From Tubulanus polymorphus (taxonomy: Eukaryota; Animalia; Nemertea): a stretch of 64,000 bases of DNA. The stretch spans positions 9,920,001 through 9,984,000 of the forward strand of contig NC_134028.1 in assembly GCF_964204645.1 (NCBI RefSeq). Reading direction: 5' to 3'. The translations under genes and the position numbers were made by a program. The notes under the pieces were generated by a model that was not told the origin of the DNA, did no database searches, and saw only the letters and a list, made by a program, of their open reading frames with translations. Positions 10,528 through 36,700 of this stretch are shown one piece after another. The stretch's first letter is position 1. Each line of letters begins with the position of its first letter.

Positions 10528-10533
10528 AATAAG

Positions 10534-11613
10534 ATGAAAAAAGAACAATATTTAAGAGATTTATATTATAACCCAGAGAGTAAAGTATCATTTATTCTAG
10601 TGTTGCAGAATTATGGGATAAAATACAATTTGATAGTGAAAATATAAAATATAGTGAATTAAAATTACGGTTACAAAATCACCCAACATATCAAATCCAT
10701 AAGAAAATGGATAAAAATTATTTAACAAGAAAAGTTATGGTTTCATATATTGATCAACAATGGCAAGCAGATTTAATTGATATGAAAAACTTAGAAGAAC
10801 ACAATAAAGGATATTTTTTTTCGATATTAAATGTTATAGATATATTCAGTAGATACGCATGGTCAATTCCAATCAAAAATAAAACTGGTATAGAAGTAAG
10901 AAATGAGTTCAAATTAATATTTAAAGAAGCTATTCCAGATAAGATACAATTTGATGAATGTAAAGAATTTTATAATAAACATTAAAAAAATCATTATCTG
11001 ATAACGATGTAGAGTATTATTCAACACACTCAGATAAAAAGCATCTATCATAGAAAGATTTGATAAAATATTGAAAACTAGAATGAGGAAATATTTTACT
11101 GCTAATGCAACACATAAATATATCGATATATTACATGATTTAGTGAAAGGTTATTATAATTTTAAACATTCAAGTATTGGTATGAAACCTATACAAGCTA
11201 GAAAAAAAGATAATTCAGAAGTTGTTTGGAACACTTTATATGGTGCGTTTGTTACACATGATTTTGGAGAACCTAAATTTAAACCAGGACAACATGTTAG
11301 AATATCTAAATATCGAAAAAGATTTTATAAAGGTTATACTCCAAATTTTACTGAAGACATATTTAAAATTAAAAAAATAATATTAACTAAACCTTTTATG
11401 TATAAATTAGAAGATTTAAAATATGAAGAAATATTAGGTTATTTTTATGAACGAGAATTATCACTTGTACCAAATTCAGATGATATAGAATACAAAATAG
11501 AAAAGGTATTGAAAACAAAAACGTAACGTGGTAAGAAATAATATCTGGTGAAATATGAAAGATGATAAATTTAATGAATGGATTTTATCTAGTAAAATTA
11601 AGAAAATAAATGA
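10534..11613 (+). pseudogene. Polinton rve integrase with C-terminal chromodomain
   Basis: QQWQADLIDM, IDIFSRYAW, QFDECKEF, YKIEKVLKT; frameshifts and stops. Confidence 0.92.
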
Positions 11614-12552
11614 ATAAAGATTTATTTATATTTGAACCCGCATAATATGTTAATAACTGGGGTAACCAATTGTGGTAAAACACATTTTATATTAGATTTG
11701 TTAGAAACTGTTTATATAAATCATTTTGATAATGCAATATTATTCTGCCCTACTTATGAAATGAATGAAACGTATAATAGAGATATAGTTTTTTAAGATA
11801 AAAGATTTATTATATCAAATCCTACTTCTGTAAAGAGTATTTTAGATAATTGTATAAAAATTGCATTAGATATTCATAATGGAACAAATGAAAGGCTGAA
11901 TCCAAGAACATGTCTATCGCACTTTTGAGCCCAAACGTCTACTTTTACTTAGTAGCCACTTGAGAACAATAAGCAATAAACGATATCATCTCTACTGCTA
12001 GTATGCACTATCGAAACCAGATGTTTCAAAATGGTCACTTTTCAATAGAAGACTCTTCGAAACAGCCACTATAGAAAACCAAAAGTGACTGTTTTGAAAT
12101 GTATACTACTGGAAAAGTAGCTGATATCGTTAATTGCTTATTGTTCTCAAGTGGCTACTAAGTGAAAGTAGACGTTTGGGCTCAAAAGTGCGATAGACAT
12201 GTTCTTGGATTCAGCCTTTCAAATACATTATTCATCATAGATGATTGTGCAAATTTACATGATTCAAAATACGAGAATTATGTTATTGAGCTTTTTCTGG
12301 TAGACATTTTGGGATAACAACATGGGTTTTAAATCAAAAATATAATTCAATTGCTAAAGATTTTACGGAGAATATAAGATTTTTAGTATTATTTTATAAC
12401 AAAGATTATAGCAATCTATGCAACAATCTCTGGAAGAAAATCAAATTATAATGACTTACATGATGAATATATGAATAAATTAAAAAATAATAAACGTTCC
12501 AAATTATTACTGAGCCTACAATTTCCCTATGAATACAAATTTATAAAATAAA
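11610..12552 (+). pseudogene. Polinton packaging ATPase (A32/FtsK-like), interrupted by a MITE
   Basis: Walker A GVTNCGKT, Walker B FIIDDC, SGRH motif. Confidence 0.88.
11890..12220. mobile_element. MITE with ~98-bp TIRs and AAAT TSD
   Basis: GAAAGGCTGAATCC...GGATTCAGCCTTTC flanked by AAAT; removal restores ATPase codons GTNTLF. A 4-bp AWWT TSD would fit Sola (inference). Confidence 0.9.
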
Positions 12553-12908
12553 ATTTTAAAAAATATAATATAATTTAGAATTGTATGGATGGTACGAGTG
12601 TACGAATGGTACGAGTGTAATAATATTTAAAAAACAGTACGAGTTTGATTTTAAGTTATTTTATACTATATTTAAATATTATTTTAATATTGCTAAAAAT
12701 GTTATCACCGAACTAATTGTAACTGAACAACTAATAATAAAATAATATATAATTTTACATTTTAAATACTTTTTCTTTTTAATTTTTAAATCATTTTCAA
12801 ATTCTAATATTTGTTTTTCTAAATATATTTTTTATTTAGTTTTATTTATATCATGAGGAATAATCAACACAATCAATTTGATTTTCCATTTATATAATGA
12901 AAAAATTA

Positions 12909-13331
12909 CTAATTAGTAAATTCATATGCTACAAATATAACAATAACTGTTCCACCTAAAATCCATATTATTTCATATTGCTGTTGTTCTTTACTTGGGG
13001 TATAATAATCTGAAAATTTAGGTTTATATAGATATAATTTTTCACGATTTGTTACTGCGTTATATAAACTCATAGCATCATCAACTGACTTAAAATCTCT
13101 ATGTGAAATATTTTGGTTATATAATTCTTTATTAATATAATCCATATAATTTTGTCTTTTTTCTCTATATTCTTCTGCAGCTTTATTATATTTCTCTAAC
13201 GCTAAGTTATATCTTTTTTGTTCTGATAATGAACCATTTTTATCAATATGTTTAAATAAATAACCGCCACCTGTAAATGCTAAAGCGTTAACAATTGCCG
13301 ATCCTATAATAGTTATAATTGCAAATGCCAT
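12909..13331 (-). CDS. Conserved Polinton protein (hydrophobic N-terminus, coiled coil, C-terminal TM)
   Basis: Intact 140 aa; pseudogenised homologue at 25586-26008. Confidence 0.75.
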   Translation of the reverse strand: MAFAIITIIGSAIVNALAFTGGGYLFKHIDKNGSLSEQKRYNLALEKYNKAAEEYREKRQNYMDYINKELYNQNISHRDFKSVDDAMSLYNAVTNREKLYLYKPKFSDYYTPSKEQQQYEIIWILGGTVIVIFVAYEFTN

Positions 13332-13347
13332 TTATTTAGTAAAAAAA

Positions 13348-13954
13348 TTACGCGTCAACAGGAGGAATATATTTTTGTTTTTCCAAATAATCAATATTTA
13401 AATTAGATAAATTTACTGCTAATGTTAATTTCAAAATATCATTGATATCAAATCTATCAACACTAATATTTCCCATTTTAAATACTTTTTTTAATAACAT
13501 TGTATAACCAACAGTTCCAACTGATATAACCAACAGTTCCAACTGATAGTAATGCTCCATTATATGAACCAGTTATTATCCATTTCTGATCCGCCATTTA
13601 TAAAGAACAAAAATTACAATCCTCAAAATATTTAGTTATCTTAGTTACAATTATTTCAACATTTATGATATTGTTAGTTTCATTTTCATATATTTCAGTT
13701 TTTATTTTTTTAATATCATCGATAATAAAATCTTCATTGAATTCATAAAATCTCAAAGAATTTCTAATGAAATCAGTAATTTTTTCTACCTTATAAATTT
13801 CTTTATTTATCGTTGTTTCATAATCAAATGTTGTTTCATTAAAAAATGCAATATTTTTGATATGAGTTATTACATCATTAATATCAAATTTCATTTCTTT
13901 CTCACGTTTAAAATCAAATCAAAAACATATACTCGGCCCTGCTGTGATATTCAT
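13348..13954 (-). pseudogene. Two small Polinton ORFs (homologues of 25340-25561 and 24978-25336)
   Basis: Near-identical peptides (DRFDINDILKLTLAV; INDVITHIKNIAF). Confidence 0.7.
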
Positions 13955-13972
13955 ACCTATATATCAAAAAAA

Positions 13973-14772
13973 TTACTGTTTACATCTTATAACTCATTCA
14001 TAAATTACAGGAAAATTATTTAAATTAATTAAATATCCATTATGATTTCTTTTTTCTAATTTGAAATTATCAAATTGTGGAATACAAGGTTTAAAATCAC
14101 ATTCAGCTAAATTATAATTTATTTGCGTTCTAAATTGTTTAACATTTTTCAATGGTAGAATATTTAATATACTGGAATTACAAATTGTACCTTAAGTTGC
14201 TTCATATGTTTTTACGGGGTATATTAAATTACAATATATATTAATATGTGTAAAAGGTGTAAAAATTATATTTGGTATATTATTACATATTATATACTTA
14301 TATATTTGCTATATTATTACTATATTATTAGTATAGTTTATTTGGTGTAATTCCTAAAATTTTAGGTTATGGTTTCCTTACTATAAATTTATGTTGTTCT
14401 TCATTAGCTAACTTTATTCTTAATTCATTATCAATCACTTTTTACAAATTTAATTCCAAATCCAGCAGCTGCGCCCATTTTTGTCTTAGCTTTTCTATTA
14501 ATTTCATGTGCTAAAGTCTCTCAATTATATAATCCTGGTTTTATAAATAGATGATACCATTTATTCAATTTTCTTACATGAATCATAAAAGCATTATGAT
14601 CAAAAGTTTTATCTGTTACATTATAAAAACAATTACATAAACTTATATTTACTAATTTTAAATCTACACAATTTTTAAATTCTCTATCTAATTGCACTAG
14701 TTAATAATGAGATTAATAATTTGTAAGTTTTCTAGAATCAACATATATTCTATATTCTTTTAATTCAATCAT
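13973..14772 (-). pseudogene. Minor capsid protein (penton), copy A
   Basis: Reverse-complement homologue of 24202-24961. Confidence 0.7.
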
Positions 14773-14788
14773 TTATTTTACATATTTT

Positions 14789-15142
14789 TTATTCAAAATC
14801 TATGTCATGACATCCTTTTTCATTCTTACCTTTATATATGAAATAGAAATCACCAGAATACAATTCTTCAATATCTTCACTAGATAATCTGTGAAATCTG
14901 TCTGGTAAATATGTTCTGAATTTATATCTTTTTCCTTTTAATCCTTCATGTTCTAAGTGAATAACTTATTTATTACCATATCTATTAGTAATTGTTTCAA
15001 TATTTGTAATTAAATATATCTTATGTAATGTTAATTCTGTTAACTTTTTGAATTTATAATCTACAGATTTGACATTTGTAGTAACTTTAATTCTATCTAA
15101 GAATGATTTGTTGTTCTCACTGTGTACTTGTCTACTCTCCAT
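14789..15142 (-). pseudogene. Subterminal ~115-aa ORF, homologue of 30081-30407
   Basis: FKKLTEL..YGNK..YLPDRF..IYKGKNEKGCHDIDF; one internal stop. Confidence 0.65.
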
Positions 15143-15241
15143 TTCAATAAAAAATTTTTTATTAAAATTGATTTCATTTATGTATTATTCACGAATATGA
15201 TTTTCATTTATGTATGTTATTCATATTTATGAAATTATTAG

Positions 15242-15393
15242 AGTAATTGTATAAATGGGGGTTCAGATTAAAGGTTGAAAGGTTGAGTGAGTAAAAAATA
15301 AAAATAAATTCGAGCGTGCGAGAATTTAATTTTTATTTTTTCATGAGCTCGACCTTTCGACCTTTGATCTGAACCCCCATTAATACAATTACT
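15242..15393. repeat. 152-bp fold-back terminus of copy A
   Basis: AGTAATTGTATAAATGGGGGTTCAGAT...ATCTGAACCCCCATTAATACAATTACT; homologous to the copy B TIR. Confidence 0.8.
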
Positions 15394-16340
15394 GATGACT
15401 GCTATTTGTGCACGGTGGATCACGTTCCCGGATGACGCAGAAGCCGTCGTAGAGTGCGGAGTTTGTTATGAGTCCGGACAGCAGTGCCAATGCCAATACC
15501 GGAATTTAACGTGTGATAGCTGCTACGCACCAATATAGCAATCGGGAGGGAGAGTGCACACAGTATCATGCTGTGCCCCTACTGTCGGAATACCATTTAT
15601 TGGGCGCGGATGTTCGAAGAAAAACCCACTAAATTCATTTACATTATAGTTTTATTATAGAAGCTTAAAATATTTCACGATATATTTTTTTACAAATAAT
15701 CATTATCATTAGTTTTATTTGACGATAGTTTCGTAGTATCGCGTTCATTGTTACCGTGCCAATTCAATAAAAAGGATAAAACGTATAAGATCGAGTCGAT
15801 AATTGAAACTCGAGGTAAAGGCGCTCGAAAACAATACTTGGTAAAGTGGTATAACTATCCCGATAAATTCAATTCTTGGGTGAACGCTCGAGATATCAAG
15901 AAATCACCATGAGTCAGGATTATTAGGTGTATCTCAAAAGTGATGCTAGCATAGACATTCATCCCGATAATACGCAACATAGTTTTAAAGTCCGTTTACG
16001 AACACCGATTTCACTTCAAGGCAAATGGGTTTGTGCTTTACATCAAATACACTTTTTGGCTGATATCAATAACGTGAACAATGGAAGATTTCAATGTACG
16101 TCGTCTGAGCACGGAACTCATCATCTCGATATACCCACGGGGCGCTATTTGACAATTACTCAATTAATTGTCGCTTACAAGCAGAGTTAAACAAATGGTA
16201 CGGTGATAAGAGGGTTCTTGCATTCGATGTACTAAGTCATAAAATTAGTATCCGATTTTATGGCAACTGTTCGATAACCTTTACGAACGATTTTGCGTGG
16301 ATCTTGGGTTTTAGAGAAAATATACCGATTAACGAAAGTA
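15394..16340 (+). pseudogene. Fragment of a second, more GC-rich Polinton family: RING-like remnant, integrase chromodomain tail, penton N-terminus
   Basis: CGVCYES..CDSC..PYCR; YKIESIIETRGKGARKQYLVKWYNYPDKFNSWV; LKSDASIDIHPDNTQHSFKVRLRTPISLQGKWVCAL. Confidence 0.7.
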
Positions 16341-17135: not shown

Positions 17136-17757
17136 TTGTTGTATTTTATTCTTATAGATGTGAGAGATATGGATTTTGCTGAGGTGTCGATGATATTGTT
17201 GCATGTTGGCACGAATGATATTTCGTGTGACGTTCTTTTAAGCAAAGTTTTGGAGAATCATCAGGTCCTGATAAAATTGATAAGATTTAAAGCGGGGAAC
17301 AAACCAGTTATTGTGTCGGGGGTTATGATACGCTATGACAGGTTTGAACATACAATGGCTATTGAAATCCTTTATCACAATAGAAGTAATGTTCAGTTTG
17401 AAAGTTGTCAGCATATATCACTCAAACTTCAATTCTTTTTTAGTGAAGAAATCATGATCGAAATTCCGCATTATAACATTATGCTACATCAACTTTGTGT
17501 CGATGAAGGTGTTAGTTTCCATTTATTTGATATGGCTCCTGAATTCATATCCAGGTAGATAATTTGTACCACTGATTTAACCAGAGTATAGAAGCTACAT
17601 CAATCAATGATTTGTTTTATTTTTTCAAGTTGTGATGGTATCCATCCCTCGAGACCAGGAAATCGGTATCTAAATTCAAGCATCGAGAAGCTGATTAAAA
17701 CTTTTGAAAATAAACAGGATGCAAGTTACATTCTTCAAAAGTTATTAATGATCGGTA
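17136..17757 (+). pseudogene. SGNH/GDSL esterase-like remnant
   Basis: LHVGTND (block III) and DGIHPS..GN (block V, ~17634). Confidence 0.6.
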
Positions 17758-17837
17758 AGTAATTAGAAGATGTGGGTTTCAGATCAGAGGTCGGAGGTCA
17801 AACACTCATCACCACAAGAAATTTTTTTTCCTTATAA

Positions 17838-20800
17838 ATGGGGGAGAATGAACACCAACCAGAAAACAATAATGTCAATAAAAATCAATATTATTGTCAA
17901 TATTGTAAAAAATACATCGATAAATACCAAAAATCACGACATGAAAAATCTGCAAATCATATAAAAAATGTAATAGATTTTGAAACTCCAGAAAATTCCA
18001 ATGAAAGAAAAGAACGATTAGAAAATATGAATGTGGATGAAATAAAATGTGAAGTTTGTAATGAATTTATAGTAAAAAGGAATTATAATAGACATCTCGA
18101 ATCACAAAAACATTATAAAAATTTAAATAAAAATGTTTTAGGATTAGAATATTTTGATAATAAACCTCAACAAGTAAAAGAATCAACTTCAAAAACTAAA
18201 TCCATTTCAAATAAACCTTACATGGAAAATGTTAGAAATTATATTGATTCACTAGAAATAAAAGATACAATTGAAATTTTAGAAACATTACATAGTAAAA
18301 TTGGTCCTGCAGCTATTATATTTAGATTTTTTAAAGGTACAACAATAGAAGATTATAGTAAATTTAATGAAATAATAGAAAAAATACTAGATTTGATAAC
18401 AGATGTTGAATATCCAAAAATTAGTATCTCTGGGAAAGTAAGTTTTATAAAGTCAGGAGAAAAAATGGATTATAATATTCAAACACTCTCTGAAGAAATA
18501 ATTTCAAAAACACAAATAAAAGAGAAGTTAGAAAAAATATTTAATGAATTTAAACGTCATATTGAAGAAAGATATTTTGAGGGTTCTGGCTTAACATTGA
18601 ATGAAATTATATATTTAGATTTAAATGTTTATAATACAAAAAGAAATAAAACATCAAAAAGTAATAAAATGTTTAAAAATGATTCAAACTTTACAACAGA
18701 AAAGGATATTAAAGCATCATCTTATATTAAATTACCATTTACAACAAAAGCAGTAATAAATATTCAAAATGAAGATAATAAATGTTTTCTATGGTCAATT
18801 ATTAGTTGCTTACATCCAACACAGGAAAATGTTTGTAGAATAACAGATTATCGGAAATATGAAACATTATATAAAATTGATCAATATCCAGTAACTATAA
18901 AAATGATTCCTAAAATAGAAAAAGTTAATAATTTAAAAATAAATGTATTTGAATTAATGCAATTACCAAAGACAAAAGGTGAAAATATTAAAGATTATAC
19001 ATTGGAATCTTTATATTTAACAGAATATTATGATGATGAAAATGCTATAGATTTGTTATATTACAAAAAAGATGAAAATGAACATTATATGTGGTTAAAA
19101 CAAATTGATTTATTCTTTAGAACAGAAAGTGATCATCATCGTAAAATTTATCTATGTAGAAAATGTTTATCTAAATTTATGACTGAGAATACATTATAAA
19201 AACATAAAGAATTATGTGATAATAAAGATTTTTTTAAATTAATAATGCCAACAGAAAAAGATTATAAATTGAAATTTACTAATCATAAATTTAAAAATAT
19301 TATTCCATTTGTAATTTATGGGGATTTTGAATCGTTGAATAAAGAATTAACTGATCAAGATAGAAAAGAAATATATAACAAAAAGCAATTATTAAAATCA
19401 ATGGATAAAGGAAATGAATTAAATGAAGACACAATACAAGACCCACCAATTATAAATACAATTAAAAAAGTTCATCAAAGAGCTGCTGCTTATGGAATTT
19501 ATATAAAATCAAATTATCCCGAATTATATGAAAGTCAATATATTTCTTTTAGAGGTGAAAATGTAGTTAATGATTTTTGTGATAAAATGATTGAATTAGA
19601 AAGTGATTTTACAAAATTATTAAACAAAAATAAAAGAATAGTTATGACAAAAGAAGATGAAATTGATTTTAATTATGCAACTCATTGTTGTTACTGTGAA
19701 AAACGTTTTTATTCATTTGATAAAAGAGTTAGAGATCATGATCATTTGAATTCAAAATATCGTGGAGCTGCTCATGAAGATTGCAATTTACAAGCTAAAA
19801 AAGTAAATTTCGTACCAATATTATTTCATAATTCATCAGGATATGATACCCATCTATTTATAAAACAATTATCGGGAAAATTGGGTGCAATTAATCAAGA
19901 AATAGAAGAATATAATACTATGAATGGTGTAAATGTAAGAAAATATGATTTTAAACTATTAGCTAAAACATCTGAAAATTATATTTCATTTCAATTTGGT
20001 TGCATTAGATTTTTAGATTCTTATAGATTTCTAGCAAGTTCATTAGATAATTTATCAAAAAGTTTAGTTGATAATGATTTTGTTATAACTCGATATTATT
20101 ATCCAAATGAACAAGATTTTAAATTATTGAGATATAAAGGCGCAATTCCTTATTCATTTTATAAAACACATAATGATTTTAATGTAACTGAATTATTAAA
20201 AGATCAATTTTATGATCAATTAAAAGAGGAGTATGTGAAAGATGAAGTGTTTAATAGAACATTAAATATTTGGAACCATTTTAAGATGAAAAATCATGGT
20301 GAATTAGTTGATTTATATTTAAAATCAGATGTTATGATATTGGCTGACATATTTGAAAAATTTAGAGAAGTTAATTTGAATCATTTTAATGTTGATCCTT
20401 GTTATTGTTATTCAAGTCCTGGTTTAACCTGGCAATGTGGTTTAAAATATACAAATGTAGAATTAGATTTATTAAAAGAACCAGATATGGTTTTATTATT
20501 TGAAAAATCAATTAGAGGTGGAATTAGTGGTGTTATGGGAGATAGGTATTTTAAAGCAAATGATGAATATAAATTATTATATATTGACGCCAATAATTTA
20601 TATGGTTGGGCAATGATGCAACCTCAACCACATAAAAATTTTATATTAACAGAAGTTGAAAATGGTGATAAAACTGATTGGGAAAGCGCAATTGCGAGTT
20701 TAAAAGATGAAGCACCAATTGGTTATTTCTTTGTAGTTGATTTAGAATATCCTGAAAATATAAAGTTTAAAACAAGAAACTTACCTTATTGCCCAGAACA

Positions 20801-22835
20801 TTTAACTGTAGATGATAGTTATTTAAGTGAATACCAGAAGAAAATAAAACCGAAAGATCATGTTTTTACAGAAAAATTAATACTTACTCAAAATAATAAA
20901 TACAATTATATTGTTCATTATAGAATGTTAAAATTTTATCTGAAACAAGGAATGAAATTAAAGAAAGTACATAGATATATTGAATTTAATCAATCGAGGT
21001 GGTTAGAAAAATATATAGATTTCAATACTCAACAGAGAACTATATCAAAAACAGATTTTGAAAAAGATTTTTTCAAATTGATGAACAATAGTTTTTATGG
21101 AAAAACATGTGAAAATATTAGAAATAGAAATGATATTGAATTAGTAAATAATTCTGAAAGATTAAGACATTTACAATCAAGTCCTAGACATTTAGGAAAT
21201 AAAAGGTTTGAAGATTATTTAACCGCGGTAAAATTAAAAAGAACGTCAATGAAATTTAATAAACCTATATTCATTGGTTCAACTGTTTTAGAAATAACAA
21301 AATTATTAATGTATGATTTTTATTATAATGTTTTACAACCACTTTTTGGGGAAAAGCATATTGAAATATTATATTTTGATTCTGTAACAGCTGATACCCC
21401 AATATTATTAAAATACAATAACCAAATATTAATAAGAAGAATTTCAGAAATAATTCCAAAACAAAATGAACTTTATATTTCATATGGTGAAAAAGAATTA
21501 ATACAAATAAATGGTTTAATAGATGTTTGGACAAGAAATGGATGGAAAAAATTAAAGAATATTATTAGACATAAAACAAATAAGAAAATCTATAGAGTTA
21601 GAACTAAATTAGGGTTCGTAGATGTTACAGAAGATCATAGTTTAATTAAACGAAATGGTGATGAAATAAAACCAACTGATATAAAAATTGGAGATGAATT
21701 ATTACATAAAAGATTTTTCCCAAGAATGAATCATATATCATTTGATGAAATAATTGATAATATTTATAATATAGAACCCGAAACATTAGAAGAAAAAGAA
21801 TATTTTATCAAAGGATTTTTCATGCAATCAAGACTTAAAATTATTAGAAAGAATTAAGAAATTCTGTGAAGAAGTTTATCCAAATAAAACATTTAGAATC
21901 ATGGATGTTATGAAATCAACAGCAGTTTATAGAATACTTGTAAATAATCCTAAAGATTTTGCTATAAAATATAATGATGAATTCTATATTCATGCAATAG
22001 TGAAAAGTAATACTTCAACTAAAGAAAAAATAGTACCAGATTATGTATTAAATACAAAAAATAATTTAAGAAAGTGGTTCTTCATTGGATTCTATGCCGC
22101 AGATGGTTCAAAAAGTTTCCAAAACCGCAAAACCATATCCTTTGCTCAAAAAGGAAAAGTTGCTATATCAGGATTGAATATATTATGTAGTTTATTAGGA
22201 TTTAATATGAATATAGAATTAATTAAATCTAAACAATTGTTTTAATTTAAGGCATGTAGAAAAAGAATTAACAGAAGTTAAAGATTTATTTGAAATATAT
22301 AACCCAACTGACTATGTTTATGATTTATCAACAGATGATGGAACATTCAATTCTGGGTTCCCATTAATCCAAAAAAAATACCGATAGTTACATACTAAAA
22401 ATCAAGACAAATGATATAACAAAAGACTTAAAAACATTAAAACATCATTTTGATTTTAGTAACTACCCTAAAAATCATGAATTGTTTAGCAATGATAATA
22501 AAAAGATTCCTGGTAAATTTAAAGATGAATTAGGAGGTGATGAAATGATTGAATTTGTTGGGATAAGAAGTAAAATGTATAGTTACAGAACAAAGGATCA
22601 TGAAGCTAAAAAGTTAAAAGGAATAACAAAACATGTGGTTGATAAACATATAGAATTTCAAGATTATATAAAGTGTTTATATAAATCAATTGTAATGAAA
22701 CACAAAATGAATTGTTTAAGATCAGAAGATCACGAGATGTACATTAATGAAGTTGAAAAAACTAGTTTGAATCCATTTGATGATAAAAGGCATATTTTAG
22801 ATGATGGTATAAAAACATTACCTTATGGCTATTAA
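17838..22835 (+). pseudogene. polB: Protein-primed family B DNA polymerase (pPolB) with intein
   Basis: N-terminal Zn fingers, EGSG, NKCFLWSI, Exo I YGDFES, RDHDH..GAAH..CN, FHNSSGYD, YIDANNLYGWAM, KLMNNSFYGK, YFD/TDS, KLKG; in-frame TAA 19197-19199; frameshifts within the intein. Confidence 0.95.
21381..22379 (+). mobile_element. Intein with degenerate LAGLIDADG homing endonuclease in pPolB motif C
   Basis: YFD|SVTADTPILL (block A), VDVTEDHSL (block B), FIKGFF and FFIGFYAADGS, YVYDLST..GTF..KN|TDS (blocks F/G, needs removal of one A from the A8 run 22371-22378). Confidence 0.93.
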
Positions 22836-23447
22836 AACATAAAATCAATATCATCAAACTCGAAATCACTATTGTCTTCTTCATTTTCATTTAATTGTTT
22901 AGGTTCTTCTTCCATTCCATTTTTTTCATTTAAATAAAGTTCTATCTTGTTCCACATTTCATCTCGCTCTCTTTGTTTCTTTTTGTTTGTTAATTCATCA
23001 AATGGAATTATAATATCTAGGTTTAAATAATTTACAATCTTATTTAAAAATAATTCATAATTTATTGAATCTGTTATTCTATTTTCCAAATGATATATTA
23101 ATATTTGTTTGAATATTTTTTTTTATATTTTCTATATCTTCTTCTGTTAATTTAGGTTTTTCATAATAATCGTTAAATAATAAATATAAATACATTTTCT
23201 TTTCTTTTGTGTTTAATGTTGACGGAATAATTGTATTTATAATATCTTTTTTAGTTATTTCACCATTTTCATTTTCTATTATTTTCATTTTTTCAAGCCA
23301 TTGCATATATTCTAATGTATGATCTTCTATAGAAAATATTTTAAAAATTTCATCAAGATAATTTAATTTTGGTTCTATGATAAAATCTCTAGTTTTTTCT
23401 TCGCCCCATAAATTCCTTTGCCATCCACAATCAACACAAAATAACAC
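22832..23447 (-). CDS. Two small hypothetical Polinton ORFs (85 and 122 aa; possibly fragments)
   Basis: ORF track; viral-like codon composition; acidic tail. Confidence 0.45.
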
Positions 23448-23461
23448 AGTACCTTCTTGTC

Positions 23462-24133
23462 TTAAGGTCGTATAATAACATTGTGGGCATTTTGTTTATA
23501 AATTATTGGTAATAGATCTTCATTAAGCTCTTGGTATTTTCTTACGTTTTCTTTATGTTTTATTGTTCTTTTATGTAGATTTGAATTACTTGTTGTAATA
23601 ATCAATTTACAATATTTACAATAATATGTTTTTCTTGTTAATTCATTATATTGTTTTTCTAACTTTTCAACTGTTTCTTCATTATCTGGTAACGTTTTCT
23701 TATATTTTATTTTTTCTAATAAATTATTTTCTCTTGCATTGAATTCAGTTTCAAATTTATTAGAAATTTTATCTATATGTGCTTTACGAAATTGATGATT
23801 CTCCCAATCTTCTATATTTTCAGGGCTATATTTTATTCGACAAGGCTCACAGAAATGATCTTTTATATTATCCTTATCATAGAATAAGAAAGGTCTTTTC
23901 CAAATAATTTCAGGTTCAACTTCAACAGAATTACTATCAACATTAGCCATTGCGCCATTAATTCTACACTTCTCTAAATGTTTTTTAACATAATTTCTTG
24001 AGAATAATTTATTACATTTTGGACAGTTTAGTTTAGGGGGTTTATAATTTTCTTCATGTTTTTTCATATGTCGAGCCATATTACTTTTTCTTAGAAATTC
24101 ACCACAAATTTCACATGCTATCTTCGCATCCAT
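23462..24133 (-). CDS. Multi zinc-finger (C2H2-like) protein
   Basis: CEIC..HMKKH, CPKC..HLEKC, CEPC..H..H, CKYC..HKRTIKH; TAAATG start. Confidence 0.75.
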   Translation of the reverse strand: MDAKIACEICGEFLRKSNMARHMKKHEENYKPPKLNCPKCNKLFSRNYVKKHLEKCRINGAMANVDSNSVEVEPEIIWKRPFLFYDKDNIKDHFCEPCRIKYSPENIEDWENHQFRKAHIDKISNKFETEFNARENNLLEKIKYKKTLPDNEETVEKLEKQYNELTRKTYYCKYCKLIITTSNSNLHKRTIKHKENVRKYQELNEDLLPIIYKQNAHNVIIRP

Positions 24134-24201
24134 TTATTAAGGAAAAATTTTATTAAAATTAATTTTTAGTGATGAGCGGTAATTTTTTTATGTTATAAAT
24201 A

Positions 24202-24961
24202 ATGGTAGAATTAAAAGAATACAGAATATTTGTTGATTCTAGAAAACTTACAAATTATAAATCTCATAATTTATTAGTACAATTAGATAGAGAATTTAAG
24301 AATTGTGTAGATTTAAAATTATTAAATATAAGTTTATGTAATTCTTTTTACAATATATCGAATAAAACTATTGAACATAATACTTTTTTAATTCATATTA
24401 GAAATATAAATAAATGGTTTCATCTATTTCTAAGACCAGGATTATATAATTTAGAAACATTATCTCAAGAAATTAATCGTAGAGCACGGTTGAAAATTAG
24501 AAAAAGATGATAAATTTTTAATAAGATTTATAAAAAGTGATAGCTCAAATAGAATTAAATTAAAGGTATTTGATGAAAGTCAACATGCATTTATGGTAAA
24601 AAAACCTATAGCTAAATTGCTAGGAATTGAACCAGATGTTGTTACAGTAAACGTAGAAGGCATTTCAAATATAATACCTTTTACACATTTTTATATTTAT
24701 TGCAATTTAATCGATCCTACAAAAGCATTTGAAGCAACTAAAGATACAACATGTAATTCTAGTATATTAAATATTTTACCATTAAAAAATGTTAAACAAT
24801 TTGGAACGCAAATAAATTATAATTTAGCTGAATGTGATTTCAAACCTTGTATTCCTCAATTTAATAATTTTAAATTAGAAATAAGAAATCATAATGGATA
24901 CTTAATTGATTTGAATAACTTTCCTGTAATTTATGAATTAGTTATAAGATGTAAAGAGTAA
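24202..24961 (+). pseudogene. Minor capsid protein (penton), copy B
   Basis: NSFYNIS, PGLYNLETL, LLG, FYIYCNLID, IDLNN pattern typical of Polinton pentons; break near 24510. Confidence 0.72.
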
Positions 24962-24977
24962 TTTTTCACCTATATAA

Positions 24978-26008
24978 ATGAATATAACTGTTGGACCGAG
25001 TATATGTTTTGGATTTGATTTTAAACGTGAGAAAGAAATGAAATTTAACATTAATGATGTAATTACACATATCAAAAATATTGCATTTTCTAATGAAACA
25101 ACATTTGAGTATGAAACAACAATTGATAAAGAAACTTTAAATGTAGAAAAGATTACTAATTTAATTAGAGAATCTTTAAGATTTTATGAATTAGAAGATT
25201 TGAAGATTTTATAATCGATGATATTAAAAAAATTATAATTGAAATATATACAAATGAAACTAGTAATAAAATAAATGTTGAATTAATAATCACTAAGATA
25301 ACTAAATATTTTGAAGATAGTAATTTTTTTGATTAATAAATGAGTGATAATAAGTGGATAATAACTGGATTATATAATGGCGCATTACTATCAGTTGGAA
25401 CGGTTGGTTATTCAATGGTATTAAAAAAAGTATTCAAAATGGGAAGTGTTAATGTTGATAGATTTGATATCAATGATATTTTAAAGTTAACATTAGCAGT
25501 TACTTTATCTAATTTAACAATTGATTATTTGGAAAAACAAAAATATATTCCTCCCATATAAATGCATAATTTTTTTGTTAAATAAATGGCTTCTGCAATT
25601 ATAACTATTATAGGATCGGCAATTGTTAACGCTTTAGCATTTACTGGTGGTGGTTATTTATTTAAACATATTGATAAAAATAGTTCATTAGGAGAACAAA
25701 GAAGACATAACTTAGCGTTAGAGAAATACAATAAAGCTGCAGAAGAATATAGAGAAAAGAGATAAAACTATATGGATTACATCAATAAAGAATTATATGA
25801 TCAGAAGATTTCACACAGAGATTTTAATCAGTTGATGATGCAATGAGTTTATATAACGCAGTAACAAATAAAGACAAATTACATCTATACAAACCTAAAT
25901 TATCAGATTATTATACCCCAAGTAAAGAACAACAGAAATATGAAATAATTTGGATTTTAGGTGGAACAGTTATTGTTATATTTGTTGCTTAAATAATTTA
26001 CTAATTAG
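24978..26008 (+). pseudogene. Three small conserved Polinton ORFs (24978, 25340, 25586)
   Basis: Syntenic with 12909-13954 of copy A; 25340-25561 intact, the others disrupted. Confidence 0.7.
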
Positions 26009-26027
26009 TAATTTTTATTCTAAATAA

Positions 26028-26489
26028 ATGGAAGATAAAGTTGATAGTATTGATATTATTCCTCATGATATAAATAAAACTAAATTAAAAATATATTTAG
26101 AAAAACAAATATTAGAATTTGAAAGTGACTTAAAGATAAAAAAGAAAAAATATTTAAAAAGTAAAATTATATATTATTTGATTATAAGTGGTTCGGTTAC
26201 AATTAGTTCTGTAATAACATTTCTAGCAATATTCAGCCCATTAACACCTTTAGCTATATCAATTGGTGTATTAGGATTAAGTTCAAGTGTTTTAACCGGT
26301 ATAAGTTCAAAATTAAATATAAAAAGTAATAAAGAAAAAATTAAAACTAATATAAAAGAAATTAATAAATTAAAGAACACACTAGATTATATAATAAGTT
26401 TAAATGGTCATATAACAGTTGAAGAACAAGATAAATTATTAAAAGAATTAATAAATTATCAATTTTTTAATTATATAAATGGTAGATAG
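26028..26489 (+). CDS. Polinton protein with two-TM hairpin between coiled coils
   Basis: 153 aa; TAAATG start; truncated homologue ~12760-12890. Confidence 0.7.
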   Translation: MEDKVDSIDIIPHDINKTKLKIYLEKQILEFESDLKIKKKKYLKSKIIYYLIISGSVTISSVITFLAIFSPLTPLAISIGVLGLSSSVLTGISSKLNIKSNKEKIKTNIKEINKLKNTLDYIISLNGHITVEEQDKLLKELINYQFFNYINGR

Positions 26490-27867
26490 TTTTCCAAAAG
26501 CTTTCCATAATAATAAATTAATTAAATATAATATTCCAGCAATAGATTTTAATAAAGATATTACATATAGAAATGAAGTTTTAGATTCATTAACTAATTT
26601 ATATATTTATGTTACTGAAACTAATAATTTTAGTGCAAAGATGGAAAATATATTTCATGTATATTTAATTAATTTTAAAAAATTGAAAGATGAAAAACAA
26701 TGGTTATTAAAATCTAATATGAAGTATTGGCAGAATCAATTAAATTTTGCTGTTTATTGTGCAACAACAGGATGTGGAATTAGTTGGAATGATCATTTGT
26801 ATAATTCTAAATATAAATTAATTCAAAGTTTATTTAGATTTCATACATACTTTCAAATCAGAATATTATTAAATGAATTAGAGTGCGCTTTACCAGGATC
26901 AAGATATTTTAAAGAATTAGATAATAATATCAATTTATCTAAGTTTTATAAAATTTGCAATGAATTTAATATAGATATAAATAATTCTGATTTTAGAACA
27001 AAAATTGGAACAATAAGATCACTTCCTTGCCCTAAAAAGATTGCAGAATATTGTGCACTTCCCATACCATCTAATAGTTTTTATAATATCTATAATAATA
27101 AATTAGGTTATGGTAAAATAGAAACAAAGGATTTAGAAACATTAAATTTCAATAAATTACCGAAATTTTATGATAATTTAAAACAAGAAAACAATAATGG
27201 TTGGGTTTATTTTATTTTAGAAAATAGTGAAGGTTTTACTAAATCAGGTATAGAAAGAATAAATCAATCTATTAGAACTTATTTGATATGTATTCTAGGA
27301 TCACAAGTTGAAACAAGATCACCGATAATTGGAAATTTGAATACATCATTTGATACACAAAAACAGTTTAAAGTTTTATTTGAAGATTCAATTCATAATG
27401 ATAAAAATAGATCGATTCCAGAAAACATTATAAGATATCAAAATTATTTAGATAAATCTCATGTAAGACTTAATTATTGTATAGGCCCTAATCTATTAAT
27501 TATTTCTAATGATTTAGTATTAAAGATGGGAAATATAATTGGTTATAATAATCTAATTAAAACTGCAACAATAAATAATTCATTTGGATTGAATGATATA
27601 AATAAAAAGGTTATTACTGCTCCAAAATTAATGGAAGGTGAAAAAAATAAAAAACACATTCAATCAACTGAAACTAAAACTAAGAATATTAAATTAAATA
27701 ATGATTCTAAAATAAAAGATTACAATACATCAGAAAATAATAGAACTGATAAAATTCAACATGATATAATTAAACTAAATGATGATATTAAATCCCATGA
27801 AAATACTAAATTAGCTATAACTTGTATAGGAATTGTAATCGGAGGAATATTATATTTTAAATTTTAA
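26479..27867 (+). CDS. Conserved Polinton protein of unknown function (462 aa, C-terminal TM)
   Basis: Intact ORF with YWQNQLNFAVYCATTGCGIS; close homologue at 63509->64000. Confidence 0.8.
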   Translation: MVDSFPKAFHNNKLIKYNIPAIDFNKDITYRNEVLDSLTNLYIYVTETNNFSAKMENIFHVYLINFKKLKDEKQWLLKSNMKYWQNQLNFAVYCATTGCGISWNDHLYNSKYKLIQSLFRFHTYFQIRILLNELECALPGSRYFKELDNNINLSKFYKICNEFNIDINNSDFRTKIGTIRSLPCPKKIAEYCALPIPSNSFYNIYNNKLGYGKIETKDLETLNFNKLPKFYDNLKQENNNGWVYFILENSEGFTKSGIERINQSIRTYLICILGSQVETRSPIIGNLNTSFDTQKQFKVLFEDSIHNDKNRSIPENIIRYQNYLDKSHVRLNYCIGPNLLIISNDLVLKMGNIIGYNNLIKTATINNSFGLNDINKKVITAPKLMEGEKNKKHIQSTETKTKNIKLNNDSKIKDYNTSENNRTDKIQHDIIKLNDDIKSHENTKLAITCIGIVIGGILYFKF

Positions 27868-27883
27868 TTTTTTTATTATGTAA

Positions 27884-29098
27884 ATGGATGTAGAAGGTGG
27901 AGAAGATTATGAAATGGGAGAAATGGGAAATAATAATGAAGGATATATTGATGATGATTATAATGATGCAGAAACTAATATTGATAATGATGATGAATCA
28001 GCATATAATTCTAATTTAACTACACCTCAATATATTGAGAAAACACGTTCAAAGATAAGTATTGAAAATGAAGTACCAGAAATAACAGAAAAAGAATACA
28101 ATTATAATGAAATTATTCATGAATTTAAACCAATATTAAAAAGATCTGGTTTCAATATAACAAATAAAGGCATGAATTATTTAGTAAAAGATTTAAAATA
28201 TTTAAATGGTGATTATTATTGGAAATTGAAAGGCGACTATTATTTTAAGATTTCAAATCTTAAAAGTAGCGATAAAATAATATCACAATCAACTTTTAAT
28301 TTATTTAAACCAGATAGAATTAAGAAAATCATTAATGATGTTATAACTGATGTTACATAAGAAGAAAGAGATGATAATATAAAAGAATTTAAACAAAGAA
28401 ATGCTAATTTTTGAAGATAATTAATGTAAATTTAAGACAAAAAAAATTCCTAAAGAAGTTATTAATTCCAAAACTAGTAAACCTAATTCAAGCGAAGTTC
28501 AAACTGAAAAACTTTTACCAAATGGATTACTTGATGCAACAGATCAACAATTAGAAGATTTAAATATATTTTCTGATAAAGCAATTAGAGAAATTATTAG
28601 TATAAGACTTGCATCTGATAAAATTGCACATGATAAAAGTATAAGAGATTTTAAGATTAGAACTTTAGAAAAAGAATTAACTGATAAAAATAAAGAAATA
28701 GAACAATTAAAGACTGATTTAGATCATCAAGTAATTGATGAAATAGAATATAAACAAAAAGAATTACGTTTAGAAAAAGAAATAGATGAACACATTGAAT
28801 GGTCTCGACAATTAGGAATTAAATCACAAGAATATAAAAAAGCTGTAAAAGAAAAAATAAGTAATAAAAATGTTAATAAAAATGGTGAAAATATTGTTAT
28901 TTCTACTCCTTCTGATAGTAGAATATTTGATAAATATTTATATTTTACAGTTGGATTTGTAATTGTATTCATTTTGATTGGGTGTAATTGGTATAAGAAA
29001 TCAAATAAAATTCATGATATTAGTAATTCTGAAACAACTGCTATCAAAAATGAAAATACTTCTGAAATTCCAAAATTAATAATAAAAAAAATGGATTA
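27884..29098 (+). pseudogene. Deletion-fused remnant: N-part of the acidic/coiled-coil gene joined to the C-part of the small TM gene
   Basis: 27884-28785 matches 63486-62600; from ~28794 matches 52425-52123. Confidence 0.8.
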
Positions 29099-29459
29099 AT
29101 ATTTTAGAAAAAAAGCAAAAAAAATAATTGAATATCTCACTACTTTTGTCTATCTATGTGGAGCAATTAAATTGTCCAGATAAATCATTTCGGATTCTAG
29201 ATATTCATTATCTTTATTAATTTATTTTGTTTTTATTTGAATATTTGAATTTGAATTTGTTAATCAATTAACATAGTAATTGATTACTAATTTGATTAAA
29301 AATTATATCATAATTAAGTTAAAAATACATAATTCATTTATCAGTTTTCATTCTTACATTCTTTTCATTCGGAATAATTTATAATTTCAAATTTCACATA
29401 TTTTTTTAGCACCAACAACATTTACTTAGGTGTTTTAGCTAAGTATATAAGGCAATTCA

Positions 29460-29740
29460 TTCAACCACTGGAGTAGCTCTGGCCAGCAGAGGCATTTTGA
29501 AAATGCACCTTCGTCCACTCTCCGGGTTTCTCCTTCGGTTTCGAATTTCGAGATTGGTAGAAATTACATTAGGCGCCTTTAATATAATGTGATTTCTACC
29601 AATCATTGAAGGAGATCCCGGTTGACGTGGGTCGCCGGGGGTGTAAGTAGAAATGACTGGGGATAAGCGTCCCGTGGCGCCTTTCAATAATGGGATGCTT
29701 ATCCCCTGAAAACTCTGTAGGTCGAGGATAGGGCAATTTT
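29460..29740 (+). ncRNA. Candidate structured non-coding RNA (long rod plus two GGCGCC-loop hairpins)
   Basis: Hairpins 29552-29604 and 29659-29706; outer stem 29504-29645; covariation with copy C; G-U pairs on this strand only. Ends approximate. Confidence 0.6.
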
Positions 29741-30080
29741 GCTAAAACTTACTGTAAAAACATTGAAATATTCCTTTTAATCACGAGAGAATGATGACTA
29801 TCCTCCTGTCGTCACGGCCGAGCTAATTTAAATAAACCTCGTTTTCAGCAACTAATGAAAACGCAGTAGTTCAATACCGGCTAACTGGCTTGTGTGTGTT
29901 GTATGTACTGCGTGCTTATTATATAACAACAACGTTGTGCAACACCTGTTTAATTGATCAATATTCAAATGAAGCACTCTCTTATAATAATATGTAACAG
30001 ATGTACTGTATGATTGTAGTTGTTTATAAAACGACTAAGGTCATTTTGGATTCTAGATATTCATTATTTTTATTTTTTAT

Positions 30081-30407
30081 TCAATCAACAATTTCTAAAT
30101 CATGATGACCGTCTTCATTTTTCCCATGATATATTATTTTAAATCCTACTAAATCTTTAAATTCCTCCGTACTCAATGAAACCCATTTATCGGGTAAAAA
30201 CACTTTAAATTCTCGCGATGTACTAACATTACAGTAGCTTAAATTAGCTGATACTTTCTCTCCATATTTAGTTTTTATCTTTTCTAATTTCAATATTTTA
30301 TGTTCAATTTCTTTTGTAACATCAACTAACTTTTTTATTTCAAATTGTTTTTTTGCTGGTTTTATTCTGTTATTTATTGTTGCTAAGAATGCTTTTCTAT
30401 CTCCCAT
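30081..30407 (-). CDS. Subterminal 108-aa Polinton protein
   Basis: Start codon lies inside the TIR; copies at 47996 (frameshifted) and 50854. Confidence 0.75.
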   Translation of the reverse strand: MGDRKAFLATINNRIKPAKKQFEIKKLVDVTKEIEHKILKLEKIKTKYGEKVSANLSYCNVSTSREFKVFLPDKWVSLSTEEFKDLVGFKIIYHGKNEDGHHDLEIVD

Positions 30408-30493
30408 TTATAAGGAAAAAAAATTTCTTGTGGTGATGAGTGTTTGACCTCCGACCTCTGATCTGAAACCCACATCTTCTAATTACTTCGGTA

Positions 30494-33400
30494 TTATACT
30501 AATGATGAACAATTGTATCCCGGTACCTGGTATTCAATCATCGCATATTATGTTGCAAATGCAAATGCTTAACAAACCTTTTGATTTCAGAATGTGCCCT
30601 TATGGCATTGTCTTTCACTATGAACTTCAGAAGTTAATCGCTAATCGAAGATTTTGGAAAAACAAGGTACCATTAATACTCGGGATTGTTGTTCTGCTTA
30701 TTTTAGAATAGGGTTTGTGGATTTCCTTGATTTGTTTAGGCCTATGCATTATTTTACTGGTCATTTACCTAATGCTGACTGTTATTACATAAGACAATTA
30801 CAATTTCTAATGTTTTCTTACATTCAGAGATTACACAAGATGCAGAAGGCGAAAGGAGATGATCAGGTAATTATAGAAATCATTGTACTTTACGTATGTC
30901 AGTAATGCAATATTATCTACCAGTTTTTATTTAATTTTTCCTATTTTTTCTTGCATTGCAGTTGATTTGGAGACCGAAAATATTTGAAGATAACATAGGA
31001 TCATCACCATCACATGTAAGAACCGTTTTCACAGCGTTTATTTGCTATTTACTGTTAATCTATTATTAGATAATTGAATTTTTCTGTGTTTAATTTTGAT
31101 CAGCAATTGGTCACATTGTAAAGGTCCATGACAGAGTGTGAGTTATTACTGTACTCTTAACATCATTTATGTGTCGAATCATATCAACAATTGTACCACC
31201 GTATTAATAATTTCAGAAAATCAGAAATGCAATTGAATTTGTGATATGATTCCTGTATGAAAGATCCTCTTAATTTCAGCTCCCCAGATTTCCGAAGCGG
31301 AGGGTTGCCACAAAATACAGTCAGGAATATGGATCGGCAAGCTGAATCTACTCACAGAAATTCTTGTACTGGTGGGGGATATGATCGTCAAGACCTTTAA
31401 AAGCAGTACATTCCAGCAACCAAGCATTCTGAGAGTGCACAATTCGTTAGTTGTAGGTGTGATAGCACGGATCCTGACCGTTGCAAGTATATGCCGGATC
31501 AGGCACAAATTAGTATAATTAGAAACACCCTGCAACAAAAGCTCGAAACTGATTAAAACATATATGTCTTACTTGACTATGGGTGTTTTACGATTCAAGG
31601 TATTGATAGGTTTAACATGTTACATAAACTTAAAAGAGAAAAATTGTCGTATGTAAATGAAAGTGAATGGTTTCTTGATAAAAATTTTAATATACAAAAT
31701 GCTCTTTCTCCTATCGATGAAAATTCAATATGTATGTTTGAATCCATAATAAGGGAACATAAGTCCACTGAATCCTATAGTATTTTAGAATCTGATGTAT
31801 CAGTTGAGGACTTGACTAGTCTTACCTGTGACCATTGATATAATTCAACTATTATGCTTCTTTTCAAATCACTTATAAATAGAAGCTAAAGAACACGTTC
31901 ATGTCTACTACATGCTAAAATCGTTTATGCCATCTTTGTTTGCTGAAAAAATTATCAAAGAATTTGGACAAAATCTATTGGAAAAATGTAACTCCTTGAT
32001 ATTTTGCATGTTGGGAGACTACCTGGTAGTAAAACCTATTTAAATAAAGCAAATATTAATTGTAAAACTGAAGTTGGCAACCATTTTGCTTTAGCTGTTT
32101 ATTCTTGTTGAGAGTCAGACTCTTACCTATGTTGACACGTGATGGCCATGATAGTTCGGCCATGATAGTTCCAGTAATAACTCAGCAAAACAGCATGTTT
32201 GTAATGAAAACTGCTCTCCTTATTACCCTTGGCATACATGTGGTAATTTTTGGGGCATGTTTAGCGGCTAGTAACCTAGAGATCTTTCAGTCACTGACCA
32301 ATAAAGAATTTTCGAGTGATTGTGTCAGTGGATATCTTTATTTGAGAAACATTAGTCATTATTCACATTTTTTAAGACTTGTGTTGATTGATTGGCTTAT
32401 GACTTGTGAAATTGACTTGAATAAACTCTATGATACAAACCTGCAATCATCTCAAATACCGGGGGTAACCAATGTTAATGATATACATGTTATAGTTCCT
32501 AGTGACAACTCGAGGGCCCCATTTTCAATTTTGCATGATTTATCTAGTGATAAAGAACCTGAAATATGCAGTAATAGTTTGAACACTGATGAGTTAGATT
32601 GTACAAAAACTACTGGTGTATCAAAATGTTTTGAAGGCAATTCAGAGGGATGTTCTCCGGCGCGCACAATAACTAATTTGAACAAATGGATTGAAATATT
32701 CAACATACCAAAAAAAATTGTTGCATGTTTTTCAAAAAATCCAGAGGTTTCATTCCATTAAAAATTTACATAACTACAATTACGTATGTATATTGGGACT
32801 TCATCTCTTATTTTTCTTGTAATCATCAGGGCAAAGAAGATAAAAATGCTATTTCTCGTATCAAAGAGTTTTTTTCTTCATCAGAATGTGAAGAAAAGGT
32901 TTTGAACTGTTTCAGAAAATTCAAAGTGCCTGCCACTTTACTAGATGACATAAATGAGAAAAATATTACTGATTTTATCCATGGTACCCCAAAGACAATA
33001 ACTAGTAAAAAGCATGTTCTCCTCCGCTGTTAATTAAAGAATGGGCAAACTGTTGTAAAATAATTTCCGATATCTGATAACAATCCTAAAGGAGCACTGG
33101 AAAAAGCTGTTGCATTTCAATCGGACCCTAACTTTCCTTCATGGCTGATATCAAAACTTCACGAGCGGATGGCGAAGTAGCAGTTGGTTCAGAATGTCAA
33201 AAGTATTTCGATAATTTCAGATTTGATTTTACTAAAAGATTGATAATTTCTAAGAATATCCAGTTTATACACTCAACTTCTACATTGAAGTTCTCTGTGG
33301 CAGAACACGCTAATTGGGGTAGAACACATAGATTTGATGAAACCTATCAATTTGTGGAGCAACGTGAACCAAATAATATTCCTGCTGTAATCATGCATAT

Positions 33401-36400: not shown

Positions 36401-36700
36401 ATAATACAAATAATAGAATAAGTAATGCTACCGATGAAGATAATGATGATGATGATTTCATTTCTATTTTAAACACCCCTTCCCTGGTGACTGAAAACAA
36501 AAGTAATTCTGGTAAACGATTAACTTTAGGGGCATTTAAAAAGGTTGATAGTGTAAATGTTGAAGAAGACCTTGAGACTTTGACAAAAGGGAACCCTGGT
36601 CTTCCGAATCGGGCAATGTTAAAACATAATAAAATTGCAAAGAAAATGAGATCTCAGCCAGAGCCGTTGCCATCCATGTTTTTTTAAACTAATAAATATG
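30494..36700 (+). pseudogene. Decayed MULE/Mutator-like transposase locus with Ulp1-like, GATA-finger, DDE and SWIM remnants
   Basis: GNHFALAVY..TYVDT..YP..TCGN (~32070-32255); CYHC-x16-CNAC (33528-33634); HDKDDA, CNFHSLQA, TDNVTERKF; SWIM CTC..CKH (35461-35515). Element ends not found. Confidence 0.7.

Follow-up and report, generated by a model that had tools for sequence, protein, structure and literature searches.

An intein of the kind discussed here leaves its precursor protein by an acyl shift at its first residue (Ser1), transfer to the residue that follows it (Thr+1) and cyclisation of its last residue, an asparagine. Polintons are recognised by inverted repeats at their termini, ends that read AG..CT and a target duplication of 6 bases. 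The two come together in the stretch of DNA reported here, 64,000 nucleotides long and called the window below (all coordinates are positions within it), which holds a Polinton whose protein-primed family B DNA polymerase (pPolB) is interrupted in its catalytic motif C by an intein. Among the closest described systems is the intein in the family B polymerase (PolB) of Mimivirus, and the splicing residues named for it are like those found here (PMC549080). Inteins are treated as absent from animal genomes in a published survey (PMC5784728). Nuclease inserts in Polinton polymerases were suggested to 'result from intein invasions' by Krupovic et al. (PMC11071308), and the word intein has 0 occurrences in Jeong et al. 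(10.1101/2023.08.22.554363). A search of the literature turned up no account of an intein in the polymerase of a Polinton or in the nuclear genome of an animal; an unremarked listing in databases or supplements may exist.

The insert is read here as a broken pol-c intein in the Polinton pPolB of a very likely animal genome, and intact copies of it are thought likely to splice themselves out and to home into empty copies. This reading as a whole is given a probability of about three in four. The host gene runs from 17838 to 22835 on the plus strand and is recognised as a protein-primed family B polymerase by PF03175 (E 2.7e-18). Its motif C is interrupted on the same strand, where YFD ends at 21380 and TDS begins at 22380. 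The 999 bases between them (21381-22379) start with SVTADTP, contain TEDH, GFYAADG and YVYDL, and have an Asn codon last. The parts of the insert are as follows, with P0002 standing for a pPolB from the database searches that carries an intact intein.

21381..22379, plus strand: intein, 999 bases, from Ser1 to the terminal Asn; out of frame in the window copy; the empty-site read joint skips exactly 999 bases.
21381..21755, plus strand: N-terminal Hint region, with block A SVTADTP and block B TEDH (21627-21638); TIGR01445 above cut-off; match to PI-PkoII.
21826..22233, plus strand: remainder of the LAGLIDADG endonuclease, with the second motif GFYAADG (22087-22107); PF14528, E 0.0014; 57% identity to P0002.
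22253..22369, plus strand: C-terminal Hint region, holding block F (YVYDL at 22313-22327) as well as the GFPL end common to pPolB inteins.

A sequence-only reading of the window had placed an intein at these coordinates, splitting motif C of a pPolB, and had proposed a profile search for Hint and LAGLIDADG domains. The profiles bear the proposal out. TIGR01445 (intein_Nterm) matches the N-terminal piece with 36.7 bits against a curated cut-off of 24.5 (E 6e-9), and the solved intein PI-PkoII is matched by the N-terminal region with an E value of 3.9e-6. The broken pieces of the window copy score under the Pfam cut-offs for Intein_splicing (18.1 bits) and LAGLIDADG_3 (19.3 bits). In P0127, an intact relative, the scores for Intein_splicing (37.7 vs a cut-off of 35.8, over model positions 3-155) and Hom_end (31.1 vs 21.1) are above the cut-offs. 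All of the class 1 residues are in place: Ser1, the Thr and His of block B, the Asp of block F, the terminal Asn (22377-22379) and Thr+1 (22380-22382). Block B reads TEDH also in all five intact pPolB relatives and in Mimivirus, while the residue before the terminal Asn is Lys, Ser or His among the relatives and Lys in Mimivirus. The insertion point lies between the first Asp and the Thr of the family B motif C, which is the position of pol-c inteins. The site had been compared with that of giant-virus PolB inteins, and the likeness holds, with YFD/TDS here, YGD/TDS in Mimivirus (PMC549080) and 42% identity in the N-terminal part. The sequence features confirm the insert as a class 1 intein of the pol-c type that carries a LAGLIDADG endonuclease and lies in the active site of a pPolB. 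A hedgehog-type Hint domain was considered as well, and was ruled out by the position inside a catalytic motif and by the exactly empty allele described below. To judge by its residues, an intact precursor would splice and rejoin YFD to TDS, and since this would restore YFDTDS, the insert is predicted to cost its host little.

The copy in the window is damaged at four places, three of them within the intein.

21824..21826, plus strand: break 1, a frame change with about 21 codons lost that are present in relatives; the end of the first LAGLIDADG motif is removed.
22234..22252, plus strand: break 2, a frame change within 22233-22253; reads differ in length at 22234.
22370..22379, plus strand: break 3, a frame change within 22369-22377, in an adenine run that is followed by the terminal Asn codon (22377-22379).
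19197..19199, plus strand: in-frame stop in the extein; most read copies differ from the window here.

The deletion at break 1 takes the catalytic acid of the first LAGLIDADG motif with it, and the window copy does not have two whole motifs. Two LAGLIDADG-like helices had been noticed before the present analysis; the second is present, and the first is incomplete in this copy by the same 21 or so codons. Break 1 was also considered as an assembly error, which was rejected because so many codons are missing. The deletion has a 3-base overlap at its junction, which fits microhomology-guided repair, and it is a guess that the lesions come from error-prone repair during homing. The single extein stop and the three intein breaks had been described earlier as a clustering of lesions in the intein. 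The lesions themselves stand, and the clustering is marginal (three of four lesions in 20% of the gene, P = 0.027). Because the reading frame is lost before the C-extein, no working polymerase is made from this copy. It would neither splice in frame nor cut, and it was probably moved or left as a defective passenger.

The polymerase lies in a Polinton that spans 17758-30487 (12.7 kb); the terminal repeats share 85 identical bases, and the target duplication is 6 bases long. The N-extein of the polymerase is 72-73% identical to those of three pPolBs without an intein.

17752..17757, no strand: left target-site duplication, 6 bases, identical to 30488-30493.
17758..17845, plus strand: left terminal inverted repeat, beginning AGT, 85 bases identical and 87 of 88 matching the right end; read depth goes from ~4 to ~800 here.
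17838..21380, plus strand: N-extein of the pPolB, with zinc fingers, an EndoVII-like zinc domain (PF02945, E 0.015), exonuclease, motifs A and B and the first half of motif C.
22380..22835, plus strand: C-extein of the pPolB, beginning with the +1 Thr of TDS; 59% identical to P0002.
30400..30487, minus strand: right terminal inverted repeat; the element ends with ACT.
30488..30493, no strand: right target-site duplication, a copy of 17752-17757.

Sequencing reads were used to look at the other copies in the species. The stretch was found in four of ten listed runs, all of one study, and a raw-read run (X5) with the same species label came from a second study. In X5 the depth is ~4 over the flank (one bin) and ~310-540 over the polymerase, which suggests that the Polinton polymerase has copies of the order of 100. 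At the left end of the element, 361 loose-ended reads agree little with one another; the read ends are diverse, which points to many insertion sites. The earlier view that the Polinton reached the genome by integration is upheld, and the element is integrated there many times. The depth ratio of intein to extein is 0.43 at 80% likeness (247 vs 579) and 0.69 at 85% likeness, so that 43-69% of the polymerase copies would bear the intein. The empty allele is seen directly in 69 joint reads with 44 starts, which skip exactly 999 bases, and a further 102 and 100 loose-ended reads stop at one or the other end of the intein. The species thus has filled alleles side by side with exactly empty ones. 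A check for intein-plus and intein-minus alleles had been proposed on the sequence alone, and both were found in the reads of the species, the empty joint being exact at the intein ends.

The reads also show how far the lesions of the window copy are shared. The stop codon at 19197-19199 differs from the window in 310 of 329 reads. At break 1, extra DNA in other copies is shown by 117 and 105 reads with loose ends and by 69 joint reads, and at break 2 the length at 22234 is different in 61 of 105 reads. At the adenine run of break 3, three placements show length differences in 23, 15 and 27 reads (65 in total), against about 105 reads at the intein side. Reads at this run had been named earlier as a check; they do vary in length, and the assembly may be in error there. 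Most reads are without the breaks of the window copy, and the Polinton family is not uniformly dead.

Related inteins were collected with several searches. With the N-terminal part as the query, 266 proteins were recovered from 734 candidates, and the best 120 of them comprise 112 with a PF00136 PolB, six topoisomerases II and two pPolBs; Mimivirus is among the PolBs at 42% identity. The intact intein of P0002 found 1302 proteins among 2604, and the best 120 of these include five pPolBs (P0002, P0005, P0127, P0140 and P0141), all carriers of an intact intein. Two further filled pPolBs, P0283 and P0348, came from an extein search and are incomplete. An unbiased search gave 115 PolBs, 19 topoisomerases, one pPolB and 15 unassigned fragments among the best 150 of 1902 matches, and five of the 15 unassigned fragments are closest to pPolB inteins. 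All five intact pPolB inteins are in frame and retain the splicing residues and both LAGLIDADG motifs with their catalytic acids, and in the four of them that were scanned the Pfam endonuclease match is above cut-off. The window intein is 59% (P0002), 44%, 43% and 38% identical to pPolB inteins and at most 37% identical to any PolB intein. Both the pPolB inteins and one group of PolB inteins have the GFPL end, which three archaeal inteins lack. A scan of IMG/VR gave 17 loci from 58 pattern matches, and the ten that were read have PolB or other non-pPolB hosts. A scan of GTDB genomes gave five loci from 23 matches, three of which are archaeal pol-c inteins (L018, L020 and L022) that served as the outgroup. 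Scans for contigs encoding the proteins P0145, P0002 and P0127 yielded none.

The topoisomerase II inteins (P0007, P0019, P0037, P0053, P0083 and P0094, and the locus L012:6001-7200) are close kin and sit at a D.D/TDG site. This occupancy is taken to be a non-allelic jump to a look-alike motif. An insert in P0005 is putatively VSR-like by its motif; it had no match in Pfam or the PDB.

Two sets of trees place the pPolB inteins. In a broad tree of 106 of the 191 extracted inteins (320-385 residues long), six pPolB inteins, that of the window and the five intact ones, form one clade with a support of 100. In a careful tree of 52 hand-picked rows, rooted with the three archaeal pol-c inteins, the pPolB inteins are again one clade (100/100) on a long stem, within a clade (99/99) of PolB inteins, including that of Mimivirus, and topoisomerase II inteins. 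The GFPL-ended PolB inteins were tried as the sister group, which they are in the 106-row FastTree tree with a support of 86, and the 52-row tree did not uphold this.

The sequence-only reading had proposed that the intein moved between a nucleocytoplasmic large DNA virus (NCLDV) and this very polymerase. A recent gain of the intein by this Polinton lineage, directly from a giant virus, would agree with a site and ends like those of the Mimivirus intein, with the 112 PolBs among the best 120 N-terminal matches, and with the closest three polymerases being empty. It is nevertheless very unlikely and already largely refuted, because the nearest inteins are those of the pPolB clade, with identities from 59% down to 38% where the best PolB intein has 37%. 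The strong support and long stem of that clade also speak against it, as does the composition of the gene, in which the guanine and cytosine content of the intein (0.24) is like that of the exteins (0.23 and 0.25). The kinship with giant-virus-type inteins stands, and the direct move into this polymerase does not: the five nearest inteins are pPolB inteins of one clade. This lineage appears most likely to have received its intein from another Polinton.

Signs of homing were looked for in the distribution of filled and empty polymerases. The 120 nearest polymerases listed comprise 94 that are empty, four that are filled, 13 without a region that the pattern detects and nine that are unclear (four of 98 scorable ones filled), and the three closest (72-73%) are all empty. 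In a 39-row extein tree, hand-picked and with P0005 left out, the seven filled rows need six changes, and 186 of 500 shuffles are as low. The intein is thus scattered on the polymerase tree and no more clustered than in the shuffles. P0005 has 620 extein residues before the site that give no BLAST match at E<1 to the window extein, while its intein is 43% identical; the P0005 extein had no significant BLAST match to P0271 either. P0127 stands for a family of 136 members, whose contigs reach 1 Mb in length, and the 15 listed comprise seven filled, six empty and two that end short of the site. Filled and empty members differ in 1-2% of residues upstream and across most of the extein, against 42% and 40% in the 10 residues on either side of the site, a difference that fades over about 50 residues downstream. 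This tract would be either co-conversion from a divergent donor or a set of escape changes in the empty alleles, and both imply pressure from the endonuclease.

Empty motif C sites vary among the polymerases (P0240-P0247 and P0284-P0388) and read DTDS, DCDS or DTDA, with YMDCDSF in 36 of 94. These variants are possibly an escape from the endonuclease. One intein-less polymerase of Polinton type, P0279, is labelled Sulfurimonas sp. in UniRef, which is probably a binning error.

Several points weigh against the reading of an intein that homes among Polinton copies of an animal, and they are set out here beside the explanations that they favour. The copy number depends on the single flank bin, and with short reads and fragmented contigs a whole unbroken copy is not visible from end to end. 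The flanks of the window copy match the empty alleles of its own lineage, and no co-conversion tract is seen at this site. The placement among pol-c inteins is found in the 52-row tree, in which the sister group lacks support. Its rows were hand-picked from lists of best hits, which favours similar sequences, and the nearest PolB hosts are metagenomic proteins, nine of ten tested matching the C-extein of the Mimivirus PolB at 45-52% identity.

In a set of 32 rows, an approximately unbiased (AU) test does not reject a pPolB clade outside the viral PolB inteins (p 0.38). This would suit a third, unsampled source, such as a Polinton-like virus of protists, a different large DNA virus that infects animals or a route by way of archaea, or else a passage from Polintons to giant viruses. 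Related PolB inteins whose first residue is Cys and whose +1 residue is Ser are described for animal-infecting iridoviruses (PMC5784728); they lie outside the trees made here and add to the case for such a source. It is still an unlikely one. The best trees nest the pPolB clade among the PolB inteins, the PolB hosts far outnumber the pPolB hosts (115 to one among the best 150 of 1902 matches of the unbiased search), and the GFPL end is common to a PolB group and absent from the three archaeal inteins. The best tree gives the direction as from NCLDVs to Polintons, although the AU test does not establish it. The intein probably, though this is unproven, entered Polintons once, as an older shared gain from a giant-virus-type PolB pool.

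The same test does not reject P0005 outside the other five pPolB inteins (p 0.37, 32 rows). In the EndoVII-type polymerases, the identity of the inteins (38-59%) runs roughly parallel to that of the exteins (40-55%), the change counts do not separate gain from loss, and the tract in the P0127 family is explicable by escape changes in the empty alleles. All but the last of these would favour an old pPolB intein that was inherited vertically, was lost precisely many times and homes little or not at all today. Such a history seems decidedly improbable, as it would require precise loss in 94 of 98 relatives and also within single families. Both endonuclease motifs are retained in five of five intact copies, the intein of P0005 is far more conserved than its polymerase, and loss by itself would not lead one to expect the local differences around the site. 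Spread from copy to copy by homing stays the preferred reading, and as far as these comparisons go it is likely.

The animal host, finally, is deduced from one retrotransposon in the window.

888-6141, minus strand: BEL/Pao retrotransposon; its repeats lie at 15-432 and 6162-6465, and in-frame stops separate its open reading frames (ORFs).

Its domains are Peptidase_A17 (E 2.6e-29), DUF1759 and DUF5641, and the BEL/Pao group is described as metazoan (PMC3118150). Because this element lies in the window, the host genome is very likely that of an animal. If the host were instead a protist, a fungus or a contaminant contig, the intein itself would still be real, and the host genes of the window, which are without a taxon assignment, would leave room for this. 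It is very improbable, given a metazoan-type BEL/Pao element in the same window and reads of one species label, from two studies, that cover the element and its flank.

From these observations we are led to suspect a cycle with several steps. The endonuclease would cut the empty motif C of sister copies, whether integrated or replicating, and repair of the break would copy the intein into the cut site. About 100 copies per genome, together with incoming empty elements, would keep the targets supplied. The first entry would have been from a pool of PolB inteins of large DNA viruses into a Polinton, in a cell shared by both, and later movement would have been from one Polinton lineage to another, also between two polymerase types that are very remote from each other. 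The fullest version of this view is a live homing cycle in animal germlines, in which a giant-virus-derived intein jumps across polymerase types and converts empty copies, sister copies escape by changing the target, and a large DNA virus on which the element depends supplies the shared cell. It is put forward tentatively, at slightly less than even odds.

The start codons of the element touch on the last of these steps. Six of the 11 ORFs in 17758-30487, some of which are internal fragments, begin with TAAATG, against 7% of all ATGs, and one such start mirrors another in the terminal repeat. TAAAT is the core of the poxvirus late promoter. The TAAATG starts hint that the Polinton may depend on a large DNA virus, and such dependence would agree with the proposed route of transfer. 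Such starts, after a T-rich stretch, are also seen in two of five Polinton ORFs at 9000-15400 and four of 11 at 57300-64000, against 6-7% of ATGs.

Other parts of the element and of its surroundings were examined as well. No match to an integrase or a packaging ATPase was found among the scanned ORFs of this Polinton copy. An adjacent related element at 57-64 kb has both rve (60161-60775, E 9.6e-11) and Pox_A32 (59251-59646, E 1.1e-8), and is 79% identical to 27370-28783 of the intein-bearing Polinton. An ORF of 462 residues (26479-27864), a possible capsid by its position, had no match in Pfam, PHROGs or Atlas, and its structure model is unusable (predicted local distance difference test, pLDDT, of 31). 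An ORF of 108 residues (30081-30407) begins within the right terminal repeat, as a mirror of the polymerase start in the left one. Further along the window, 47624-53053 holds a tandem duplication of about 2855 bases, within which the right end of the same Polinton family occurs twice, reversed. At 53761-58125, inverted arms of 566 and 134 bases, 98-99% complementary, stand around a 24-base repeat present 55 times (54628-55929), and a GIY-YIG ORF (53321-53791) adjoins this structure. A series of plus-strand ORFs outside the Polinton (32072-36687), with one weak match to a GATA zinc finger, is probably another mobile element.

By this locus, a nuclear genome that is likely an animal's has the intein in tens of copies. 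Polymerases of giant viruses and Polintons of animals are here linked directly by sequence, and the link has a bearing on whether these elements share cells with large DNA viruses. The filled and empty alleles of one genome form an uncommon natural set in which homing, co-conversion and target escape are measurable copy by copy. The movement also seems to cross polymerases that share little beyond the catalytic motif, if homing is rightly read from the sequences. The pol-c intein is real; its host gene is of a kind that is new, and its host kingdom is very likely new as well.

The likeness to known systems can be stated for each in turn. The Mimivirus PolB intein (PMC549080) shares the motif C site, Ser1, the Asn end, Thr+1, TEDH, the two LAGLIDADG motifs and a length of about 350 residues, and is 42% identical in the N-terminal part. 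Its host is an RNA-primed, delta-like PolB, whereas the host here is the protein-primed polymerase of an integrating element, present in tens of copies beside empty alleles in a cellular genome, and its intein belongs to a separate pPolB clade with the GFPL end. The archaeal pol-c inteins (L018, L020 and L022) have the same position in motif C and Ser1, but they are a distant outgroup with another host polymerase in another domain of life. The PolB inteins of invertebrate iridoviruses (PMC5784728) are likewise Hint domains with LAGLIDADG in a family B polymerase, in viruses of animals, yet they have a Cys start, a Ser after them and no GFPL end, belong to free viruses and lie outside the present trees. 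Inteins in nuclear genomes of eukaryotes, with viruses as their proposed carriers, are described for Anaeramoeba and fungi (PMC10710043, PMC5784728); those are in host genes of single-celled eukaryotes or fungi, and the one here is in a multi-copy mobile element of a likely animal genome. The HNH and VSR inserts of Polinton pPolBs (Jeong et al., 10.1101/2023.08.22.554363; Krupovic et al., PMC11071308) are also endonuclease domains inside a Polinton polymerase. Those are fused domains, whereas the insert here is a whole Hint domain within the catalytic motif, with alleles that are exactly empty.
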